Shown piece after piece: positions 1-12,287 of a DNA stretch of 12,460 nt. Each line of letters opens with the position of its first letter. Positions within the stretch are counted from its first letter, which is position 1. The notes beneath the pieces were generated by a model that ran no database searches, was not told where the DNA came from, and was given only the letters and a program-made list of their open reading frames with translations. The stretch lies in NCBI GenBank assembly GCA_045105515.1, contig JBGCDR010000109.1, positions 1-12,460 on the forward strand, written 5' to 3'. Made by a program: the position numbers and the translations under genes. The DNA comes from Oligoflexales bacterium (lineage in GTDB: Bacteria > Bdellovibrionota_B > Oligoflexia > Oligoflexales > Bog-1112).

Positions 1-2
1 AC

Positions 3-95
3 GCAGCTTCTTCAAAGTTAAGAGTCAGAATTGATAAGCTTCGTGATGAAATAGGTTACGCAGCAGCAGGTCTTTGGAACTATAAAATAACATAA
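3..95 (+). CDS. Possible 3' end of a CDS entering from the left edge, or a fragment of a disrupted gene continuing into 187..1206
   Basis: Frame 3 is open from the window edge: AASSKLRVRIDKLRDEIGYAAAGLWNYKIT, ending in TAA at 93-95. Too short to identify. Confidence 0.3.
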   Translation, partial: AASSKLRVRIDKLRDEIGYAAAGLWNYKIT

Positions 96-186
96 ATTAA
101 GCTACCAAAGGGTTTTATCAATTGTTAGACAACTCTAATACATAGAAGATAATTTATGGAATATTGAATTTTCAATTAATTCTTAT

Positions 187-1206
187 ATGAATCATAGTAG
201 GTGGATTCTTGCACTCGAAATAATTGAACTTGAGGAGAATTATAGTGCTATATTTGTTGAGGAACTAGAACTGGTTCTAGCTGGTAATAGTGAATTAACC
301 TGGTATAATCCCGCTTCTGCATCTATTGGTTCTAAAGACTATATGACCATAATTGATGAGTTCAAGTTAGAAAATTCTAGAAATAAAGACTCTCTGATTT
401 CTACACAGATTCCAATAGAAACTGAAGCTCAAAGACAGCTTACTCAACCGGTCATTGGAGGAAGTCAAGTATTTCGAAATACAAAACTAGTTGAAAACAA
501 TCTTAGAGTAATAGTTGTTTATGATTCAGCAGGACTGCCAGTACATAAAGCTGAGCTTGAGTTGATGAATCATCAGATAGCTGAGTATGCGGTTAACGAA
601 GATCTACCAATTCGTATAGAACCTTTGAGTACGCAGGATTTTTTAAGGACTGATACGAGCAATGCTGCACTAATAATTTGGAATGATATGGGTGCAGGGG
701 GAGCTAATTTCACTTCTGAACTCGTTCAGAAGTTTAAATTGGGTTATAATTCAGGAATCCCATTCCTAGCTTTGGGAGCAGATTTAACAAGTTACCACTT
801 AAACATGGATAGTGAAGACAGTTTTGAAACAAGCGAAGATTGGAGTAAACTTATCCATTTGGGTCTCAGCCCAGATCAAGGTAATCCATTTATTAGCAGA
901 AGAATCTTAGTGACTCCAGATGCAGAAGCACATGCATCTGCAATTGGACCCTATGGAATTATCTCCGAATTTACCTATAATTTTGCTCTCGACCATCCTT
1001 CTCAAGTTAAAGAAGGAGGTGTTGTTTTTGCTGTTGACCAATTTGGAAACTCCCAAGCTGTGATTTCTGACTTAAGCTCTGACACAGCCCCCACATTCGC
1101 TTTAAACTGTTTACTGCATCTCATAAATGAGCAGGACGTCAGCGAAAAACTTTTTAAAAATGTCATATCAAATATCCTCAACCCACTTAAGGTAGCTGTG
1201 AATTAA
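187..1206 (+). CDS. Hypothetical acidic protein, possibly the C-terminal part of a larger extracellular protein; C-terminal alpha/beta domain reminiscent of non-catalytic class I glutamine amidotransferase-like folds
   Basis: 339-aa ORF with no signal peptide and no clear RBS; the frame is already open from 139. The pattern LRVIVVYDSAG...ALIIWNDMG...GYNSGIPFLALGADL suggests alternating beta/alpha elements. The fold guess is inference. Confidence 0.7.
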   Translation: MNHSRWILALEIIELEENYSAIFVEELELVLAGNSELTWYNPASASIGSKDYMTIIDEFKLENSRNKDSLISTQIPIETEAQRQLTQPVIGGSQVFRNTKLVENNLRVIVVYDSAGLPVHKAELELMNHQIAEYAVNEDLPIRIEPLSTQDFLRTDTSNAALIIWNDMGAGGANFTSELVQKFKLGYNSGIPFLALGADLTSYHLNMDSEDSFETSEDWSKLIHLGLSPDQGNPFISRRILVTPDAEAHASAIGPYGIISEFTYNFALDHPSQVKEGGVVFAVDQFGNSQAVISDLSSDTAPTFALNCLLHLINEQDVSEKLFKNVISNILNPLKVAVN

Positions 1207-2054: not shown

Positions 2055-3476
2055 ATGCAACTTAATAAACTAATATTAATAATATTTTTTATAAATCTCT
2101 CTTCATGTAGTAACAAGAAAGATATCAGATCAGCATCGACTTCCCACGCAAAGACCTCGGAAGATAGTATGGCTGATGATGAAGGTGACAAAGGTGGCTT
2201 GGAAGATGTCCTAGTAAGCCAAGGAGAGCAAGAAGAAGGTCTTGAAATCACGAATATTTCACTGGAAGGTCTTATTGATAGCGTTGAAAATGAGCTAGAA
2301 GCGAATACCACTGTAGCGACGATCAAGGCAGAGTTCTCTGATGGCTCAGCTTCAGATCTAGATGTTAACTTTCAGATTTTGGAAACTATAGATACTGATT
2401 ATGAGTTGTTCGAAGTTTCAGGTTCAACCCTTTCAAATATAGATGTACTTGCTGGGGATAAACGATTTGCATTGCACATAAAAGCTGAAAAAAGTGGTTC
2501 AACATTCGAGACCAATATTTTATTTTCTATTGCAGCAGGTAAGCTCCCCCCAGAAAGTCCTCAAAATATTGTTTTCCAGCCCGAACTAGCTATCGGCGAA
2601 GATAATTTAGTTGGGAGCTTTACAGTAGTTGATGATGAAAGATTTGAGCATGTGATAAGTCTTGTAGAAAACGAAGAAGTAGTAGAAAACGATAATGCTT
2701 TGTTTACCATTACCGAAGATAAATTATTCACATCTGATACTTTTGCGTGGAAGGATAGTTTTACTATCCAAGTTGAAGCGCAAAATAATGAATTTGAAGA
2801 CTTAAAATTTGCTACAGAAATCACTTTTTCAATAGCTGAACTAGAACTAGGTGCAGAGGATATTGTAGATGTTGATTTTTTGACAAAAACCTGGGCATAT
2901 AGTACTACTGGTGGGAATATGGCACCCAATTTTGGTGGAAATGAAAAAGCCATAAAAGACCAAAACAATAACAAACTGGCCTTTACTACGCTTGAGGACG
3001 CAAAAAATGAGTGCGAAAAACTAGCGAATTGCCATCGAGTTTGGCAGGTTAATGGTAACTACGTGGCTGGTAATGAAACTTATACACCTGGTAATTTCTA
3101 TCTTTTTGAAACAGGTATTAACCCAACCTTAGTGAGTCCAGTTACTGCTGGAGTCTTTCACACATTATACAGCACAACTGGTGGATTTTTGGCTCCAGAT
3201 GCTGCTGGAAATGCAAAAGTTATTAAAGACCAAGACAACAACAAGCTAGCCTATCCTAGCCTACAAGAAGCACAGACTGAATGTGACAAGCGTGCGACCT
3301 GCCGCCGGGTATGGGAGCTTGGAGCTGAAAATACATACAGTGCTGCCGGAGAAAGCTATTCGGGACCAAATTTCTATCTTTTTGAAACAGGTGTTTATCC
3401 TACAGATGTAAATCCTTATGGAGGGAAGTTTTACAATAAGGTTGTTGCACCAAAAAATGATCCATCTAATTACTGA
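2055..3476 (+). CDS. Surface lipoprotein / putative adhesin with two cadherin-like domains and two tandem C-terminal Cys-paired (PAN/apple-like) repeats
   Basis: RBS AAGGA at 2044-2048; lipobox LSS|C at Cys18. Cadherin-like units VEN..ANTTVATIKA..D..DYELFEVSGSTL and LVGSFTVVDD..ISLV..NDNALFTITEDKLFT..SFTIQVEAQN. Duplicated C-terminal module with TLEDAKNECEKLANCHRVW / SLQEAQTECDKRATCRRVW. Confidence 0.85.
   Translation: MQLNKLILIIFFINLSSCSNKKDIRSASTSHAKTSEDSMADDEGDKGGLEDVLVSQGEQEEGLEITNISLEGLIDSVENELEANTTVATIKAEFSDGSASDLDVNFQILETIDTDYELFEVSGSTLSNIDVLAGDKRFALHIKAEKSGSTFETNILFSIAAGKLPPESPQNIVFQPELAIGEDNLVGSFTVVDDERFEHVISLVENEEVVENDNALFTITEDKLFTSDTFAWKDSFTIQVEAQNNEFEDLKFATEITFSIAELELGAEDIVDVDFLTKTWAYSTTGGNMAPNFGGNEKAIKDQNNNKLAFTTLEDAKNECEKLANCHRVWQVNGNYVAGNETYTPGNFYLFETGINPTLVSPVTAGVFHTLYSTTGGFLAPDAAGNAKVIKDQDNNKLAYPSLQEAQTECDKRATCRRVWELGAENTYSAAGESYSGPNFYLFETGVYPTDVNPYGGKFYNKVVAPKNDPSNY
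2898..3404 (+). repeat. Intragenic tandem duplication, two ~90-aa units (starts 270 nt apart)
   Basis: Unit 1 is 2898-3128 (YSTTGG...NFYLFETGINPT) and unit 2 is 3168-3404 (YSTTGG...NFYLFETGVYPT). An identical 24-mer AATTTCTATCTTTTTGAAACAGGT occurs at 3093-3116 and 3369-3392. Confidence 0.9.
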
Positions 3477-4360: not shown

Positions 4361-6265
4361 CTATCCACCCAAGAAATGCAGCAACGAAATATAAAAAAGC
4401 AAAGGTTCCGGAGGTATATTATCTCTGTCCTTTATCTTTAAACTGCTCTTGAAAAGAGAGGTGTGATTGCTTGGGAAGTAAATACTATTACCTAAATCTG
4501 CAAAGATTGGTGATAATCTACTTCTTAAAAATAAGTGCTCACCCATTGATTTGAATTTTGGTATTTCAAGAGTTTGAGCGATAAAATTTGCAATGTCAGC
4601 TTGGCTACGCTCTAGATATATATTTCTTTCTTTCACTGAAAAATGCTTAGCCGTATTTTCAGCGATCCCACCTGTTATTAGTAAGGGTACCCTGCTATTA
4701 AGTTCATCAGGTGGTATGTTAGCAAAGCTGGAATTTAAAGCGGGAGTTCTGATACCATGATCGCCTGTAACAATAACGATACTTTTTTCCCACAAGGATT
4801 TCTTTTTTAATCCTGAAATAAAAGTGCCCAATGCATAGTCTGCGTAATAAACCGTCCTTTCACTTGGGTGAATCCCTCGAAATTCGTAATTGTTTATATG
4901 TTTGGGTGCATCAGCTGGCAATTCCCAAGGAATGTGATTACTAACAGTCAGAACCATACCAGTTATAACTGGCTGATCTGTTGAAAGGTTAAGGGACTCA
5001 ATAGCATTTATCGAATAGTTTGCTAAGCTTAGGTCTCCAGTGCCCCAGCCAGTTTTAGCCATATCTTGCGGAAGCTCGGAAATGCTCAAGGTTGATCCTA
5101 CATTGTGCTTATCCCAAAACCACTGTTGGTTATCAAACCTTCCTTCTCCACCATGATGCCAAAAGCTTGTTCCTGATTCAGGGTAATCGGTAAGACATTT
5201 ATGATGAATATCTTGTCTTTCTTTCATAAGAGACCGGTCGATACCACTCAAATACCCGCACCATATTGCTTCTTGCCCCCCCCTTGTTACATTGCTAACT
5301 GACCATACCCGGTGGAACAATATACCTTTGTCTGCTAATTCATCAAATTGGGGGCTTATGGATTCCCTAGAATTTCCATACACCCCCATGTCGTAATACC
5401 GGGCTGACTCCATCAGATAAACAATAATGAGTGGTTTTTCACCTTTATATTTCAAGCTATTAAAGCTTTCATTAAGATGCGTTCCAATTGGTAAAATATT
5501 CAATTTTTCCTGCTGCTCTTTGAGGATTAATTGTTCAATATTCTCTTGAGTTATTGATGCTGTTCCATAGCGTTCTGTTAATAAGACAAGATCGTGTTCA
5601 CTCAAAGGCGGAATTTCAACTTTTTTTGTAACTTTATATACAAATCCCTCGATAAAATTAAATTGCAGGTTTTCAGGAACAAACCATTGAACTTTGTAGC
5701 GATTATGGAGTGTATGAAAGCCTATTCCTACCAAAATAACAAATGTTCCAATAAACCACTCTTGCTTGCGACTGAGTTGATATCTTTTGAAAAACATTTC
5801 TACCATTTTCCAAATAGCAAAACTGCTCAAGAGCATAAGCATGACCTTGAAATCAAAAACCGAACCAAAATTTGCCCTTAAAAATAGAGTGTCGGTGAAA
5901 TAAGAAAAATGGGAAGGAATGAAGGGGAAATGAAAAAACGAAACATAAGAACAATGAAGGCTCGCTAGAATCGCTATAGTTCCAATGAAAACAACTCGAA
6001 AAGAGGATTCAAGCATAGGTTTCCCGAGCAAGCCAATAATGAATCCACCTATTGATAATAGCACTGCCCCAAGAACAGAGGTCCAAATATCACTTAAAAA
6101 ACCAGTTATAAATGCAAGGAAATGAACTGTTTTGCCACTATTGTCGATTTGATGGTTTAAATCAGCAAATGTTAAGATTCTATGGAATATGAAAATACCC
6201 ATCAAGATAGCAGTTGACTTAGTAATACTGATTTTATTAGGCCTCACAGGGACTTTTTTCCTCAC
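4361..6265 (-). CDS. LTA synthase family protein (LtaS/MdoB-like phosphoglycerol transferase; alkaline phosphatase/sulfatase superfamily)
   Basis: About five N-terminal TM segments, then a sulfatase-like domain with metal/catalytic motifs IIVYLMES, SPQFDELADKGILF, SNVTRGGQ (catalytic Thr), LTVSNHIPW, YYADYALG, IVIVTGDHG. GTG start. Confidence 0.88.
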   Translation of the reverse strand: MRKKVPVRPNKISITKSTAILMGIFIFHRILTFADLNHQIDNSGKTVHFLAFITGFLSDIWTSVLGAVLLSIGGFIIGLLGKPMLESSFRVVFIGTIAILASLHCSYVSFFHFPFIPSHFSYFTDTLFLRANFGSVFDFKVMLMLLSSFAIWKMVEMFFKRYQLSRKQEWFIGTFVILVGIGFHTLHNRYKVQWFVPENLQFNFIEGFVYKVTKKVEIPPLSEHDLVLLTERYGTASITQENIEQLILKEQQEKLNILPIGTHLNESFNSLKYKGEKPLIIVYLMESARYYDMGVYGNSRESISPQFDELADKGILFHRVWSVSNVTRGGQEAIWCGYLSGIDRSLMKERQDIHHKCLTDYPESGTSFWHHGGEGRFDNQQWFWDKHNVGSTLSISELPQDMAKTGWGTGDLSLANYSINAIESLNLSTDQPVITGMVLTVSNHIPWELPADAPKHINNYEFRGIHPSERTVYYADYALGTFISGLKKKSLWEKSIVIVTGDHGIRTPALNSSFANIPPDELNSRVPLLITGGIAENTAKHFSVKERNIYLERSQADIANFIAQTLEIPKFKSMGEHLFLRSRLSPIFADLGNSIYFPSNHTSLFKSSLKIKDRDNIPPEPLLFYISLLHFLGG

Positions 6266-6410: not shown

Positions 6411-7664
6411 TTATCTAATATCTACTTTCAAAACCTTGCCATCTATAAGCATCTCCAAGATGGTTTGCTCGCTATCTGGTTCCAAGTTTTGCTTAATCCA
6501 AGCAACCAGGGCCATTGGGGTGGTGTAAGAACTTGGCCACCCCATAGGATATAAGGTTAAGCCAAATGGTGAAAGTTTTAGCTGATTTGGTACATATCCA
6601 ACCAGAGATTCAGGAGTATTCACAAGCAAATCCGAACACTGTAACAATTTAGCTACTTGATCTCTATTTGAGTTGAACAAGCTAAAATTTGTTTCGATAA
6701 CAGGGCTTGCTAAGGACTGAACACGTATCCGATTTTTTTGTTTCGAACAATCACTTAGATAAGATTCTAAACTATCACTGTAATTGGTATTGCTTAAACT
6801 TAATTGCGGTCCTGCTTGAAAAAGAATGGTATTACCCTTAGAAAAGGCATCATCATAAAATTTTTTCCAGCTGAGATTAATTTGTTTTAGAATACTTTCA
6901 TTTGGTAAATAGCCGCATTGAGGATGAACTCCATCTACATATGTCCTTTTAAAATCGGGAATAGACCAACCTGCCGAAAAATTTACATAGTCAATTTGAT
7001 GGGTCTCAAAGAATTCTTGTAGGGCAATTGTGCGCATTTCCATCATTTGATTAAAATTATCCAGTTCACTATAGTCCCGAGGATAGCATTCCCAATCATT
7101 AAGCCGTAAAATCATTAAGTCAATATTTTCGGTATTTGCTGCAATATAGTTAAAAATGGAATCTCCATGTGCAGTTTTTGCCCATTCGAAAGAAGCAATT
7201 TTTTCTAGAACTAAACTTAAGACTTCTTGGGTATCATCGTCATGATAATGCCGCATGTTTTTTGACTGTAATGTGGCAAATCTATGGTATACGTCTGGAA
7301 CGGTTAATTGATAGCGGTCCTTTATGATTCTGCTTCCTTCGGTACGATATTGACCAATCACTCTGTCTCTAAATAATGTAATACTGGTCAAATACATTCC
7401 ACTATCTATAATTAGGACTCGTTTATTGATCTTTTTTCTAAGAATTTTCCTGTATTTAGGCGTTTTAATTTTGACCCAGGTTTGTTTTTCAGAGTGCTTA
7501 GATTTAACGAGATCCTTGAGATCTGTCATGAATTTTTCTTTTCCAGAGAGACTCCAGTCAGAGTGGTCTGGCATGCTAGTATCAGAATTGCTGCTTTCAG
7601 CACTACAAGAAGCAAGAAATATGACTAGAAAATGAATAAAAACTTGAATAAAAAATGGCTTCAT
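6411..7664 (-). CDS. Divergent subtilisin-like (S8) serine protease lipoprotein
   Basis: Lipobox LAS|C at Cys20. Subtilase triad motifs in canonical order: VLIIDSG (D87), TAHGDSI (H166), YVNFSAG, and PSSYTTP (S379; compare GTSxAxP). RBS AGGT at 7671-7674. Confidence 0.72.
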   Translation of the reverse strand: MKPFFIQVFIHFLVIFLASCSAESSNSDTSMPDHSDWSLSGKEKFMTDLKDLVKSKHSEKQTWVKIKTPKYRKILRKKINKRVLIIDSGMYLTSITLFRDRVIGQYRTEGSRIIKDRYQLTVPDVYHRFATLQSKNMRHYHDDDTQEVLSLVLEKIASFEWAKTAHGDSIFNYIAANTENIDLMILRLNDWECYPRDYSELDNFNQMMEMRTIALQEFFETHQIDYVNFSAGWSIPDFKRTYVDGVHPQCGYLPNESILKQINLSWKKFYDDAFSKGNTILFQAGPQLSLSNTNYSDSLESYLSDCSKQKNRIRVQSLASPVIETNFSLFNSNRDQVAKLLQCSDLLVNTPESLVGYVPNQLKLSPFGLTLYPMGWPSSYTTPMALVAWIKQNLEPDSEQTILEMLIDGKVLKVDIR

Positions 7665-7675
7665 ATTTTTACCTA

Positions 7676-8374
7676 CTATAGCTGATCCACTTGTTCAATA
7701 GCATCTTGCCAGGATGAGCCGTTCTTACTAAGGCCCCTCACAACTCTAGTGTATGAGACTTTTTTCCAATTTGAGCTCAATTTGCTGTAAAACAGCTTTC
7801 CTTCTGTCGGGTTTATCATTGTCAACACCTCAAGCAGCTCCAAGCGATTGGAGGCTTGATTTTTTTTTGTACTTTTTTTTCCGGAAAGAGGCTGTTGCAA
7901 ATATTCGATTAAATGGGTTTGAATTATTTCATTTGATTCAGGAATCAGTTCTGCAACCTTCTGTATAAAATCAATTTGACGAACTAAATTCAGCTCGACA
8001 TTATTATTGCCATTTTTTTCTCTTGAAAGCCGATGTAAATTTTTAAAAGAATCTTTTATCAGTGATTCCATTCCATAATTATCAATCAGATCGTGCAGTA
8101 GGTCCTTCTCATTTATTAATGCATTATTTTGGCTTTTATAGAATAATCGGGACAATTTATGCCCTATAGGTACTTTGAAATCTGAAGGCTGCTTAAGTTT
8201 GGAATTTGGGAATTTAGAAATACTGTTATCATATGGAAGTATAGGTGCCTCTTTTTCAACGAAATGTTGATTCCTATCAAATTCTCGATACAAATCTTTG
8301 TTTGATAAATTTAAAATGTAGAGACAAAAAATTGTTGCTAATATCAGGTTCATTAAAATAAATTGTCTCAACAT
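7676..8374 (-). CDS. Hypothetical protein with a single N-terminal membrane anchor and a basic, helical soluble domain
   Basis: The track's GTG at 8380 lies inside the SD-like GAGGTG (8378-8383), so the ATG at 8374 is the more likely start (232 aa). Hydrophobic segment FILMNLILATIFCLYILNL. Flanking intergenic gaps are 16 and 11 nt. Confidence 0.75.
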   Translation of the reverse strand: MLRQFILMNLILATIFCLYILNLSNKDLYREFDRNQHFVEKEAPILPYDNSISKFPNSKLKQPSDFKVPIGHKLSRLFYKSQNNALINEKDLLHDLIDNYGMESLIKDSFKNLHRLSREKNGNNNVELNLVRQIDFIQKVAELIPESNEIIQTHLIEYLQQPLSGKKSTKKNQASNRLELLEVLTMINPTEGKLFYSKLSSNWKKVSYTRVVRGLSKNGSSWQDAIEQVDQL

Positions 8375-8390
8375 ATTCACCTCAATAAGT

Positions 8391-9161
8391 TCAATCTAGC
8401 AAATCAACATTTAAGACTGTTCTGGTTAAAAGCTTAAATTGTTCGTCAGCCCATTCATTTTGAAATCGAATCGATCCAGTAATTAGACCTTCAGAAAATA
8501 CTAAATTTTCTTCTTTAATACTCGAATTTGACATAATATTGTAGACTTTTCCTGTGAAAGAAAAGGTTTCCAAGCTTTCAATTTTGTCGCCAAGCAAGTC
8601 CTCATCAAGCAAAGATTTACCTACGGTTAATGTCTTCGCTGGCACTACATCACCGTTTTCCAATACCATTGGGTGCCCCATGGTAACCTCAAGTTTGCGT
8701 CCAGTTTTTGTCTCAATTATCAAGATATCTTCTTTAGTATCACCTACAACAAAATCTAGCAATTCCACCTCTTGCTCCAATAAGCTGCCTTGAGAAAGAC
8801 TGGTGTAAGCTTGCAACCCACGATCAACTGCCTGTTTCATGGGTGTGTAAAATCCACCAAACCTTATTTTTTGGCTACCTGTAAAACAGCCCTTAGGGCA
8901 CATTCCAGCAGTTGCTAAACCAGATTGGCATGGAGTTGACTCACTAAAAGGGGCTTTAATGCTCGCAAATGACCAATAGTGACTGGCTATATTAGCTGCA
9001 TTTTCAAGTTCTTTAGTAACATAGCCACATTTCCTAGCCCAGGCATTTCTACCTCTCATCTTGGACTCATCTGCAATAATATCTGTGTTGCACCGTTCAA
9101 TATGGCCATAACAGTAAAATGATTGTAAAAATAGCAGCACTTTGAAAATAATTTTTTTCAT
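8391..9161 (-). CDS. Secreted protein with a small Cys-rich N-terminal domain and a C-terminal Hint (Hedgehog/intein-like) autoprocessing domain
   Basis: Signal peptide at about aa 1-19. Hint block A G|CF at Cys92 (codon 8886-8888), block B LEVTMGHP (T160/H163), VPAKTLTVGKSL, block F GKVYNI. The terminal block reads GLITGS rather than HN, followed by a 26-aa tail. RBS AAGGA at 9169-9173. Confidence 0.88.
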   Translation of the reverse strand: MKKIIFKVLLFLQSFYCYGHIERCNTDIIADESKMRGRNAWARKCGYVTKELENAANIASHYWSFASIKAPFSESTPCQSGLATAGMCPKGCFTGSQKIRFGGFYTPMKQAVDRGLQAYTSLSQGSLLEQEVELLDFVVGDTKEDILIIETKTGRKLEVTMGHPMVLENGDVVPAKTLTVGKSLLDEDLLGDKIESLETFSFTGKVYNIMSNSSIKEENLVFSEGLITGSIRFQNEWADEQFKLLTRTVLNVDLLD

Positions 9162-9174
9162 ACTTTAATCCTTT

Positions 9175-10764
9175 TTATATTTTGCGACCTAGATATTCTA
9201 AGTGTCCTAGCACAAAGCCAAATTCATCAAAAATAGTCAAGACTAGTTTAGAGCTAGCAATATCATTGTGATCAGTAGCTAAGATGTTTTCCACCATTCT
9301 GAAATTGCATTTTTTTGAGAAGTTGCCAATGCAGATCCCAGGATGAGTAAGTCCTGTATTAGGATCAATTACTGGGGACAAAAAGCCCACATCAAAGGCT
9401 TCAATCTGACCATTCATCTTTTTCATCATTACAAATGCGCCTAGTTTTCCTCTATCGAAGATGCTATAATTACTGGAAAAATATCGAGAAGTACTTCCGT
9501 CAACTGTGGCGGCAATAAAGTCGACTGCACTCGCATTTGAATGCCCCTTAGCAACAGGATAGACCAACCATTGCCCCATACCGCTAAGATCTCTATATGG
9601 TTTAGGTATATCAATATGAATGGTATCAAGCTCACCAAGAGGGCATCTATTAGTACCTTGTATGCATGATTTTGCAAGCAGAGAAATTTCATTGTTCTGT
9701 TTTTGCAAAGATTTTATGTCCAAGCGCAGCTGCTTTAGTTGTTTATCCTTAAATATAAATCTTGGTTCAGATAGAAGAGAATCCTGCAACAATTTGTTGA
9801 GCGATGCATATTTTTCACGGTTAGAGCTGTAAAGCGTGTAGTAGAAGTTAAGAGCATCTTCCCTATAATGATCTTCAAGATCCTGATGTTGATCTCTTTC
9901 TCCAGCTGCAATGACTTCAGGAAACATATCATAAGATTGTTGAAACCATTTTAAAGTCACTCCATGCTTATATTTAAAAATATCTTCTCGCAATTTTGCA
10001 AGTTCAGTTGTTAATTCATCAGGATTACTAGCATAATCTTCAATGCGATTGCTGCCTCCAACAATTCTTGAGTGGATAGTTAAAATCGACGATTTATGCG
10101 CTAGTGATAGAAGTCTTTCAAACGACGCTTTTGCTTTTACACCGAATCCTGAGTAATCTGACTTTGCTTTAAGCTGCTCGACAACTTTATCCTCAGTGCT
10201 TGAAAATTCATAGAGTAAACTGTAGCGCCCACCAAGCTGCCTTCCAACATAAAAATGCGTCCCACAAGCTCTGTAGAATGCATTTATCCCATGGTTATTT
10301 AGAATATTTTTAGCTTTGTCAGTTAAAGAGAATGAAGGTGAATTAGTTCTGATTTTTTCTTCAGTTACAACATAATTTGCATCAACTAACCAGTAAAAAT
10401 TATCCTTCTTAACATCAATATCTTTAAAATAAGAAAAACTTCCTCCACCATTTCCCCAAAGTCCTTTGGCACTAACACTAGCACTGACATCCAAAGTTGT
10501 ATGTAATTCTGATCGGGACTTGATTTGTGATTCATTGTATAGTCGCGACAGCGCCTGCGGATTTGCGGATAACTCCACCCCATGCACACATGAACCAAAG
10601 GTTTGTGTTTCAGAATAATTGACTCCAGCACCAAGTTCGGGAAGATACAAATTTGCGGATAGAGACGAAATATCAATTTTTTCGTCCCCACATGAAGATA
10701 GAGAGATTGATGCCATCAAGGCGATGTTTCTAGTCAGTTTCTTACAGTCAATTCGAGCTGTCAT
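9175..10764 (-). CDS. MACPF/CDC-superfamily (perforin-like) lipoprotein
   Basis: The likely start is ATG 10764 (RBS GGAGAG upstream), not 10914, giving MTARIDCKKLTRNIALMASISLSS|C with lipobox Cys25 (529 aa). Signature CGTHFYVGRQLGG at 10228-10266 fits the MACPF motif (Y/W)G(T/S)H(F/Y)X6GG apart from position 1. Also an N-terminal LGAGVN...GSCV segment and alternating TMH-like segments LDVSASVSAKGLWG and AKSDYSGFGVKAKAS. Confidence 0.78.
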   Translation of the reverse strand: MTARIDCKKLTRNIALMASISLSSCGDEKIDISSLSANLYLPELGAGVNYSETQTFGSCVHGVELSANPQALSRLYNESQIKSRSELHTTLDVSASVSAKGLWGNGGGSFSYFKDIDVKKDNFYWLVDANYVVTEEKIRTNSPSFSLTDKAKNILNNHGINAFYRACGTHFYVGRQLGGRYSLLYEFSSTEDKVVEQLKAKSDYSGFGVKAKASFERLLSLAHKSSILTIHSRIVGGSNRIEDYASNPDELTTELAKLREDIFKYKHGVTLKWFQQSYDMFPEVIAAGERDQHQDLEDHYREDALNFYYTLYSSNREKYASLNKLLQDSLLSEPRFIFKDKQLKQLRLDIKSLQKQNNEISLLAKSCIQGTNRCPLGELDTIHIDIPKPYRDLSGMGQWLVYPVAKGHSNASAVDFIAATVDGSTSRYFSSNYSIFDRGKLGAFVMMKKMNGQIEAFDVGFLSPVIDPNTGLTHPGICIGNFSKKCNFRMVENILATDHNDIASSKLVLTIFDEFGFVLGHLEYLGRKI

Positions 10765-10847
10765 TATGGTTTCTCTCCGTTCTGGCTGCACTGCTAATCT
10801 TGCCAACTTGGACAATAAACAATATTTTTCGATGGATGAGATAGATT

Positions 10848-10904
10848 TCATAACTCTTTCATTTTCAAATAAAACATCATAACGCTCATTCATTGTCAAA
10901 TAAA
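10848..10904. repeat. Imperfect tandem direct repeat upstream of the MACPF operon, candidate regulator-binding sites
   Basis: TCATAAC--TCTTTCATTTTCAAATAAA (10848-10873) versus TCATAACGCTCATTCATTGTCAAATAAA (10877-10904): 24 of 26 aligned bases identical plus a 2-nt indel. Confidence 0.6.
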
Positions 10905-11010
10905 TTATCACCAAAAGAAAGAGACATCAGTAAGCAGTTACCCAATGTAGAGTAAATGAGTATTAAGCTGTTAAATCCAAATAAGCTAGATATTGGGAAA
11001 AGATCAAAAT

Positions 11011-11375: not shown

Positions 11376-12287
11376 TTGGAATTTAATAAGAGAGATTTTC
11401 TTTATCATTTAGGTCTTGAATGGATTGAGGGTAAAACAAATGCAAGGATAAGAGATTTTAGCGATGTTCGCTATATTTTGTTAGGTGGAAAACCTAGGCG
11501 TATGAAGAACTTAGCTAGGAATCTTGAAGCTAATTTAGAACTAGGTCAGATTCACTCTGGGATCCAAGAAGTAGAAGAAGCTACCAAAGCAGGACGGTAT
11601 GTGATGTACAAAATAGGGCCTGTTCTATCGGTAAGTCATGGAATGGGCCGTCCTAGCTTATCAATTCTCTTAGAAGAGTTAGCAAAGCTTCTTTTTTATG
11701 CAAAAAAACACAGCAAAGACCTATTGGCACAGCCAGTTTATTTCTTACGTCTTGGAACCTGTGGGAGTTTAGGGGTCAAACCTGGAAATTTAATATTATC
11801 AACAGAAGCCTTGATGCCTGACCTAAACACAGGTCTTACCAAATACGAGCTTGACCAAAAAGTGAGCTATCCTAGCACCTTTTGTCCAAATTTTTTGCAA
11901 GAAATTCTAAATTTTTCGAAGAAAAATAAACCCTTGCTACCTGTTCATAAGGGAAAAACCATAACAGCAGATGATTTTTACCAAGGTCAGGGCCGCTTCG
12001 ATGGATACTTTAAATCTAGCTATAGTGAGTCCGAAAGGCAAACATTCTTTGAGAAAGCATATAAACTAGGAGTTCGCAATTTTGAAATGGAAGCCGCTGA
12101 GCTTGCATCTTTCTGTAATCGGCCAGATTCCCCCTTATCCTTATCTGCTGCTACCTTGTGTGTTGGATTGGTAGATCGGATGCAAGGGGACCAAGTGACT
12201 AACTCGCTATCAGAAATTAATAGCTGGGAGCAAAGTCTTTTAAAATTTGCAAGCCAATATATCTGTGATGCAATAAAAAGAATTTGA
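11376..12287 (+). CDS. udp: Uridine phosphorylase, eukaryote-type (UPP1/UPP2-like; PNP/UDP family)
   Basis: TTG start with RBS AAGGA at 11363-11367. Motifs DFLYHLGL, DVRYILLGGKPRRM, RYVMYKIGPVLSVSHGMG.PSLSILL.EL.KLL, RLGTCGSLG, DFYQGQGRFDG, GVRNFEME, LVDRMQGDQV. Confidence 0.93.
   Translation: MEFNKRDFLYHLGLEWIEGKTNARIRDFSDVRYILLGGKPRRMKNLARNLEANLELGQIHSGIQEVEEATKAGRYVMYKIGPVLSVSHGMGRPSLSILLEELAKLLFYAKKHSKDLLAQPVYFLRLGTCGSLGVKPGNLILSTEALMPDLNTGLTKYELDQKVSYPSTFCPNFLQEILNFSKKNKPLLPVHKGKTITADDFYQGQGRFDGYFKSSYSESERQTFFEKAYKLGVRNFEMEAAELASFCNRPDSPLSLSAATLCVGLVDRMQGDQVTNSLSEINSWEQSLLKFASQYICDAIKRI

Follow-up and report, generated by a model that had tools for sequence, protein, structure and literature searches.

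We analysed a 12,460-nucleotide (nt) stretch of the genome of an Oligoflexales bacterium (contig JBGCDR010000109.1 of assembly GCA_045105515.1; hereafter, the window), in which a minus-strand gene at positions 8391 to 9161 encodes a precursor with a Hint domain, the fold seen in inteins, bacterial intein-like (BIL) domains and the Hedgehog C-domain. The gene is the second in a run of four minus-strand genes separated by 13, 10 and 11 nt, and the gene upstream of it encodes a protein that profile and model comparisons place in the MACPF/CDC superfamily and that is probably a lipoprotein. What is new here is this operon link of a Hint gene with a gene for a MACPF/CDC-fold lipoprotein, often also with a subtilase-like gene; a first-pass annotation of the same DNA, made from its letters alone, contained neither the operon nor the conservation of the pairing. 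An AAGGA Shine-Dalgarno-like motif lies 7 nt upstream of the ATG of the Hint-precursor gene. Judged by its similarities, the open reading frame (ORF) is a real gene and not a chance one, because it has homologues down to E 1e-116 and 531 representative clusters at E≤1e-3. The features of the gene, in window coordinates, are as follows (aa, amino acids; counts refer to an alignment described below).

8391..9161, minus strand: Hint-precursor gene, a 256-aa ORF with its stop codon at 8391-8393
9105..9161, minus strand: probable Sec signal peptide, residues 1-19 (MKKIIFKVLLFLQSFYCYG), assigned by eye; relatives' N-termini are alike
8889..9104, minus strand: N-domain, residues 20-91 (Cys24, Cys45, Cys78, Cys88; last residue Gly91), conserved across 97 sequences
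8886..8888, minus strand: Cys92, residue 1 of the Hint domain, with the predicted scissile bond Gly91|Cys92; conserved in 97/97 and aligned with intein residue 1
8472..8888, minus strand: Hint domain, residues 92-230, from profile, model, Foldseek and VIA-align
8673..8684, minus strand: Thr160-Met-Gly-His163, the block B TxxH motif (T 96/97, H 97/97)
8472..8477, minus strand: Gly229-Ser230, in place of the intein His-Asn (G 97/97, S 91/97), from structural alignment
8394..8471, minus strand: conserved helical tail, residues 231-256 (family pattern x-R-[FY]-Q-N-E-W ... R243 ... R247)

The residues on which the first-pass annotation had built its case (Cys24, 45, 78 and 88, Gly91-Cys92, Thr160/His163 and Gly229-Ser230) are all present in the 256-aa product, and the layout it had drawn, a signal peptide followed by a small Cys-rich domain, a Hint domain without terminal Asn and a short tail, is right, with the signal peptide recognized by eye. 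The N-terminus, consisting of KK, a hydrophobic run and CYG|H, looks Sec-like by eye, as it does in relatives, and Cys17 falls within the putative signal peptide. The tail reads IRFQNEWADEQFKLLTRTVLNVDLLD.

A single-sequence Pfam scan of the precursor matched Intein_splicing at E 0.026, and NCBIfam intein_Nterm matched residues 92-166 at E 0.0083, both under the cut-off; a word-index search returned three relatives besides the query (4 matches among 1155 candidates). When phmmer was run against 1.84 billion representatives, 531 proteins were found at E≤1e-3, 243 at E≤1e-10 and 24 at E≤1e-30. Going by these similarities, the precursor is a member of a large unnamed family, whose proteins carry the database labels 'hypothetical protein' or 'Hint domain-containing protein'. 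The family occurs in 52 of 121 sampled genomes of the window's phylum at E≤1e-12, with several genomes holding multiple copies, and named family records also point to Myxococcota and 'Deltaproteobacteria'.

Conservation was counted in an alignment of 97 of 152 family proteins, from which most of the longer ones were excluded and in which mean column identity was 22%. Despite this divergence Cys92, His163 and Gly229 are invariant, Thr160 and Pro71 are each kept in 96 of the 97 sequences, and Ser230 is kept in 91, with T in 3 and A in 2. Before Cys92 stands Gly (65 sequences) or Ser (24), and after it Tyr or Phe (93). An AlphaFold2 model made from this alignment has a mean pLDDT of 87.8. Foldseek found 66 matches to it in the PDB at E≤1e-3, and the 45 that were listed are all inteins, BIL domains or the Hedgehog C-domain. 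By VIA-align the best match is the Ssp DnaB mini-intein (Z 18.2, root-mean-square deviation 2.0, 136 residues), 87 chains reach Z≥8, and the Tetrahymena BIL2 (Z 17.5), the Clostridium thermocellum BIL (Z 17.1) and the Hedgehog C-domain (Z 15.9-16.1) follow. Thus the Hint fold anticipated from the letters is confirmed by the model, and the fold, the first-residue Cys and the TxxH motif, found together, place the protein in the Hint superfamily.

The same structural alignments fix the end of the domain. Full-length intein chains pair with model residues 92..230 (6rix_B over 1..145, 1zd7_A over 1..159 and 2in0 over 1..440); the terminal position of 6rix_B was taken from a sister entry whose title names N145. 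Since chains running from residue 1 to the last residue of an intein align with 92..230, Ser230 occupies the position of the terminal Asn and Gly229 that of the His, in the register given by the first-pass annotation, which had put Gly-Ser at the His-Asn site. The residue just after Ser230 is Ile231 (V, I or A across the family), not Cys, Ser or Thr. The protein thus differs from canonical inteins in having no C-terminal His-Asn, no Cys/Ser/Thr at +1 and only 26 residues beyond the domain. By the alignment, loss of the Asn is a fixed trait and not decay, because Ser230 is kept in 91 of 97 sequences. When the PDB was searched with the family profile, the matches included the inteins Pho RadA (3e-8) and KlbA (9e-8) as well as the BIL of C. 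thermocellum (9e-6); no chain of Hedgehog came up at E≤1. In profile alignments with two inteins, Asn208, kept in 91/97, falls opposite the Asp of the block F 'YDL' motif.

The replacement of the block F Asp by Asn208, together with the lost terminal Asn, speaks for a silent Hint domain, serving as a structural or binding domain in an uncleaved precursor that acts, for example, as a scaffold or inhibitor on the MACPF protein. We consider this quite unlikely, because the invariance of Cys92 and His163 and the near-invariance of Thr160 in 97 divergent sequences are hard to explain without catalysis. It is also at odds with a standalone N-domain ORF that stops exactly at the junction. Two short ORFs located next to full-length paralogues (loci L034 and L035) encode the N-domain alone. 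The one in L034 ends '...CRSN*' where its paralogue reads '...CRSS|C', so that its stop falls at the residue before the position of Cys1, and the one in L035 stops two residues further. By their sequences, both fit cleavage at the junction. As they end at it or within two residues of it, they also show that the N-domain can occur with a plain C-terminus, and having that end free would at least not be incompatible with its function. Locus L034 (G030:C106, 1-8111) is a tandem array of at least 5 MACPF-like ORFs, one full-length Hint gene and the N-domain-only ORF.

The N-domain was expected by the first-pass annotation to vary among homologues; instead, the pattern R-C...R..W..C...P...C...C..G|C is present in 142 of the 161 proteins that match the family profile. 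Its best-kept columns (of 97 sequences) are R23 86, C24 91, R38 88, W41 91, C45 87, Y62 85, C78 88 and C88 94. In the AlphaFold2 model it consists of helices 32-44 and 50-58 plus strands, with block-mean pLDDT of 84-97 over residues 31-90 and 67 over 21-30; an Atlas feature search with residues 20-91 gave no usable match, returning one probable relative and generic helical structures. The tail, whose conservation in homologues had been proposed as a check, is among the best-conserved stretches of the protein, as fits a functional role: in the pattern G-[S/D]-x-x-[FYW]-Q-N...R, Q234 is kept in 94, N235 in 68 and R247 in 90 of 97 sequences, position 233 is aromatic in 93, and position 243 is R in 93 family members and K in the window protein. 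It is modelled as a helix over 231-249 (block-mean pLDDT 72 and 61 over 231-250) that is amphipathic (moment 0.425 versus 0.273 for shuffled sequences; mean hydrophobicity −0.31), and it matches no NCBIfam C-terminal sorting-signal model at E≤0.1. At most 26 residues (median 2) follow the family match in all 161 proteins. Even in members of 775-988 aa, PKD or TSP1-like regions come first and the unit of N-domain, Hint and tail closes the protein. Because the N-domain is present in 142/161 and so little follows the match, N-domain, Hint and tail are, by these comparisons, one fixed module that is always C-terminal.

A second subfamily, from another genus group, has Asp at the position of Ser230 and the tail G-D-x-x-W-Q-N...R, and it retains both the R-C pair with which the N-domain opens and a junction of the form C-x-C-G-C-F. 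Both subfamilies share [FYW]-Q-N five to six residues past the end of the Hint domain as well as the distal Arg. Loci of the Asp type (L048-L052 in genomes G054, G061 and G046, and L046 and L050) are paired mainly with the subtilase-like family F5, not with MACPF-like genes.

The Hint-precursor gene lies in an operon with the following genes.

9175..10914, minus strand: MACPF/CDC-fold protein, a 579-aa ORF, the upstream operon partner
7676..8380, minus strand: 234-aa ORF, 10 nt downstream of the Hint gene in the same operon; an orphan with no Pfam match
6411..7664, minus strand: 'F5', a 417-aa exported protein, possibly a divergent subtilase; a recurrent neighbour of Hint-family genes

A scan for promoter-like sites gave chance level only, and terminator-like sites were about 1.6 standard deviations over chance level.

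The probable true start of the upstream ORF is Met51 (about nt 10764), followed by a lipobox, L-S-S-Cys75. Pfam MACPF matches the window protein weakly (E 0.0058; 17.2 bits against a cut-off of 21.5) and two relatives weakly too, and a profile of 18 MACPF-like sequences matches 9uj0 'Aeg-L' (1e-5) and suilysin (6.9e-5) in the PDB. Foldseek, run on a model with pLDDT 61, listed 45 matches, all of them MACPF/CDC (best TgPLP1, E 2.6e-8), with TM-scores of only 0.17-0.43. These profile and model matches place the product in the MACPF/CDC superfamily, and its N-terminus reads as that of a probable lipoprotein. Its family is large in this lineage, with 53 matches in 27 Mb over five genomes and 6-14 per genome. 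Prediction of a complex between residues 75-579 of the MACPF-like protein and residues 20-256 of the Hint protein scored 0.00 in two runs without controls, and has no bearing either way. No MACPF-Hint fusions were seen among 170 proteins. In P0057, a long family member of 528 aa, residues 49-164 of the N-terminal region match the MACPF-like profile weakly (E 0.001) and may be a fusion remnant. The literature searched held no paper on 9uj0 'Aeg-L', none linking MACPF with Hint or BIL domains, and, going by titles, nothing on MACPF proteins of Bdellovibrio.

The pairing of the two genes is conserved though not universal. The Hint profile matches 30 of 41 related genomes and the single MACPF-like protein of the window 18 of them, and 12 of the places matched by the latter adjoin a Hint match. 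A first set of 16 loci, 12 of them picked for having both genes near each other (and so biased) and 4 picked on the Hint match alone, contained the pair in all 16. In a test set of 20 further loci, from genomes unused before and picked solely on the Hint match, a MACPF-like ORF lies in the flank of 13 and a subtilase-like gene (family F3 or F5) in that of 11; 17 loci have one or both. Combining all Hint-only picks, a MACPF-like gene lies within about 7 kb in 17 of 24 loci, where about 3% would be expected by chance per 15-kb stretch, given 53 MACPF-like matches in 27 Mb. The pairs are on the same strand in 24 of 25 cases with a median gap of 33 nt, and both gene orders are seen. Pairwise distances of Hint proteins and their partners are correlated (Mantel r 0.74, a value that none of 2000 permutations attained), a figure that shared ancestry inflates.

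We infer from these observations, as a proposition that we hold to be evenly balanced, that the exported precursor processes itself at Gly91|Cys92 and that the freed N-domain works with the MACPF-like lipoprotein; the cleavage, the chemistry behind it and any functional tie with the pore-former are all part of that inference. After export, Cys92, aided by Thr160 and His163, would attack the Gly91-Cys92 bond to form a thioester. Since Ser fills the position of the intein Asn, neither splicing nor Asn-driven C-terminal cleavage would be expected. The thioester would be resolved, most likely by hydrolysis, freeing an N-domain of about 72 residues held by disulfide bonds, and the Hint domain with its tail would remain as a spent single-turnover enzyme. 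Passages of two reviews describe BIL domains as cleaving at their own N- or C-terminus (PMC7765530, PMC5874633). The freed N-domain may then be an accessory subunit of a pore-forming module, targeting or restraining the presumably co-transcribed MACPF/CDC-type lipoprotein, and in many relatives it may work with a subtilase-like protein as well. The tail, placed just past the active site, would belong to the processing machinery and govern either the timing of thioester discharge or the choice of its acceptor.

Several points weigh against this proposal. Cleavage is itself a prediction from sequence and model, and the block F Asp is replaced in the family. Of the 20 test loci, 3 lack both partners, two of these loci lying at contig ends, and 4 have a subtilase-like gene only. 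A 12.5-Mb 'Archangium sp.' metagenome-assembled genome has six family matches and no MACPF-like match at E≤0.01. Most MACPF-like genes, moreover, have no Hint neighbour; genome G054, for instance, has 14 MACPF-like and 2 Hint matches. Finally, plain hydrolysis leaves the conservation of the tail (Q234 94/97, R243 93/97, R247 90/97) unexplained, which favours a reaction in which the thioester is transferred.

In such a Hedgehog-style acyl transfer, the tail would present a nucleophile to the Gly91 thioester and the N-domain would end up covalently anchored, the candidate acceptors being a membrane lipid (for example through a hydroxyl or the phosphatidylethanolamine amine), a glycan, or the partner protein by way of a lysine. 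We regard this as a serious, though less probable, alternative. The start of the tail right past the active-site position and its place among the best-conserved stretches speak for it, as do the persistence of the core G-[S/D]-x-x-[FYW]-Q-N...R in the divergent second subfamily, the amphipathic helix with two conserved Arg, and the fact that the operon partner is predicted to be a membrane-acting lipoprotein. The Cys-x9-Cys-x2-Gly loop that ends the N-domain in nearly all members looks as if the donor end were recognized. The active site of Hedgehog is given in excerpts of PMC12054796 as C1, D46, T69, H72 and C143, and the family shares its outline in the junction G-C-[FY], in the T at +69 and the H at +72, and in the lack of Asn. 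A nucleophile-capable Ser or Thr stands at +139 in 94 of 97 sequences, compared with the second catalytic Cys of Hedgehog at +143; however, the equivalence of Ser230 is uncertain, since by the ends of the aligned ranges Cys400 of Hedgehog falls within about 2 residues of it and closer to model residue 232. Nor was a conserved acidic residue seen at the site of Hedgehog D46, where +46 is Phe137 (Y in 53 and F in 39 of 97 sequences) and columns 136 and 138-141 are variable. The tail, being short and polar (mean hydrophobicity as given above), is unlike a lipid-binding region, and ligation by this route is closed to N-domain-only paralogues with their stop at the junction.

A narrower form of transfer, which we think unlikely, is that Hint and tail pass the C-terminal glycine of the N-domain from the Cys92 thioester to a membrane lipid, for instance to the amine of phosphatidylethanolamine, and thereby control a perforin-like weapon, in a bacterial counterpart of protein lipidation by Hedgehog. 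If so, the N-domain, as a small, disulfide-rich and lipid-anchored protein, could shield the envelope of the producer from its cognate MACPF protein in the manner of CD59, or, anchored on a prey membrane, could mark the site of pore assembly; each MACPF paralogue would then have its own matching partner gene.

The subtilase-like neighbours bear on one further outcome of the same thioester, head-to-tail cyclisation, which we judge very improbable. Here a protease, perhaps the subtilase-like neighbour, would cut after Arg23, and Cys24 would attack the thioester at Gly91 in the manner of native chemical ligation, closing the backbone into a cyclic mini-protein of 68 residues. Chemistry of this type is spontaneous once both ends exist. 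The R-C pair is conserved (R23 86/97, C24 91/97), in the divergent subfamily too, and 11 of the 20 test loci have a subtilase-like neighbour of the Hint gene. Yet the scheme is purely inferential, and Cys24 may simply be half of a disulfide; the N-domain-only paralogues have no thioester, and no subtilase-like gene accompanies 13 of the 24 Hint-only picks.

Two families of subtilase-like genes recur beside Hint genes. F3 proteins, of about 700 aa, carry a C-terminal Pfam Peptidase_S8 domain (3.6e-10). F3 directly adjoins the Hint gene in L020, L031-L033, L036, L037, L039, L040 and L045, and the small families F4, F6 and F7 recur in the same cassettes as F3 and the Hint gene. Relatives of F5 adjoin Hint genes in L025, L029, L046 and L048-L052, with two or three copies in L051 and L052. 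An alignment of three F5 sequences shows invariant D87, H166-G167, N228-x-S230 and S379...P383, in the order of the catalytic residues of subtilases. That F5 is a subtilase is nevertheless not established, as it has no Pfam or PDB match and hhalign relates it to the S8-bearing F3 only at E 0.091. The 234-aa ORF was rejected as a conserved partner, having no match in 40 related genomes. In the Archangium sp. assembly (L003, 7746-10485) an unrelated exported ORF of 261 aa lies between two Hint-family paralogues in tandem, and kinship of the 234-aa ORF with that ORF was likewise rejected, there being no similarity between them.

Outside the operon, the minus strand of the window encodes at 4361-6265 a membrane protein of 634 aa that belongs to the sulfatase / LtaS-type transferase family (Pfam Sulfatase 3.3e-20), whose gene lies 145 nt downstream of the operon and was not found in the other cassettes. 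A uridine phosphorylase is encoded at 11376-12287 on the plus strand (best model the eukaryote-type TIGR01719, 249.5 bits against a cut-off of 249.95). On the same strand, 2055-3476 encodes a probable lipoprotein of 473 aa, the C-terminal half of which holds two copies of a Cys-containing repeat of about 90 aa (...KDQ.NNKLA...EC.K.A.C.RVW...NFYLFETG...).

Two decades after BIL domains became known, hardly any biological role has been assigned to them, and a Hint domain with a fixed partner domain and a conserved tail, tied to perforin-like genes, suggests a concrete and testable function. The analysis also uncovered a large family of MACPF-like lipoproteins in a predatory lineage, for which we found no paper in the literature searched. 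Were a lipid or a protein to receive the N-domain from the thioester, the system would exemplify Hedgehog-type ligation occurring naturally in bacteria, with a bearing on the origin of the Hedgehog processing domain, and it could offer a compact self-ligating tag for protein engineering.

The first-pass annotation had called the precursor Hedgehog-like. As a description of architecture this stands: like Hedgehog and Hog proteins, it has a signal peptide, a G|C-F junction after an N-domain, with cleavage predicted here, no terminal Asn and an extension past the Hint domain, and Thr160 and His163 lie at +69 and +72 from Cys92, matching the numbering of T69 and H72 in Hedgehog. As a statement of kinship it does not hold, because the family profile finds inteins and BIL domains but no Hedgehog chain, and the Z scores of the former, 17-18, exceed the 15.9-16.1 of Hedgehog; on these profile and model comparisons the family is nearer inteins and BIL domains, and its resemblance to Hedgehog is one of layout, not of specific descent. 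PF01079 does not match the query at E≤0.1 and is weak in 2 of 30 long relatives. The tail of the window protein, at 26 aa and polar, is not of the size of a sterol-recognition region, Ser230 (+139) stands about where Hedgehog has Cys143, and no counterpart of D46 is seen. The family here is, moreover, bacterial and has one conserved N-domain family.

With BIL domains of types A and B (Amitai et al. 2003; PF07591, PF13403) it has in common that they are bacterial Hint domains in secreted proteins, self-cleaving (by prediction in the present family) and not mobile inteins. A-type domains keep the His-Asn that is absent here, whereas the B-type, according to a passage of PMC7765530, also lacks the C-terminal intein motif. 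Both types are embedded in large proteins, within variable regions and with further sequence downstream, while the domain described here is protein-terminal, with its own tail and a fixed N-domain. The query matches neither PT-HINT (PF07591) nor Hint_2 (PF13403) at E≤0.1; among the 30 long relatives scanned, 5 reach the PT-HINT cut-off of 27.7 bits (best P0109, 37.8 bits) and none matches Hint_2.

Dori-Bachash et al., in 2009 (Funct Integr Genomics 9:153), reportedly described C-type BIL domains with a 'PPS-1' (putative predator-specific) domain in Bdellovibrio bacteriovorus. In the literature searched for C-type BIL and PPS-1 we found nothing beyond one second-hand sentence, in PMC9185962, which mentions the C-type BIL of Bdellovibrio and attributes it to the 2009 work. 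By that description the two are alike, both being BIL-type Hint domains of predatory bacteria with a conserved companion domain; the family may therefore be the Bdellovibrio C-type BIL, likened by second-hand description only, and the window protein would then be of a known kind.

For the proposed partnership with a pore-former, pleurotolysin (the aegerolysin OlyA/PlyA with the MACPF protein PlyB) is alike in teaming a small protein with a MACPF protein. CD59, a small lipid-anchored inhibitor of the membrane attack complex, blocks MACPF action. The partnership proposed here is drawn from gene neighbourhood, and not from a relation of sequence or fold with these two systems. In two-component pore-formers the small partner recruits the MACPF protein to the membrane, as a passage of PMC9174665 has it.

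The Tetrahymena BUBL BIL domains (6y75, 6tmm) are among the best structural matches to the model (Z 17.5 over 138 residues). Unlike the family described here, they are eukaryotic, keep the terminal Asn (an entry title names N143A) and flank ubiquitin-like domains. BUBL BIL domains use their thioester to conjugate the ubiquitin-like domain to other proteins, and so provide a precedent for ligation driven by a Hint domain.

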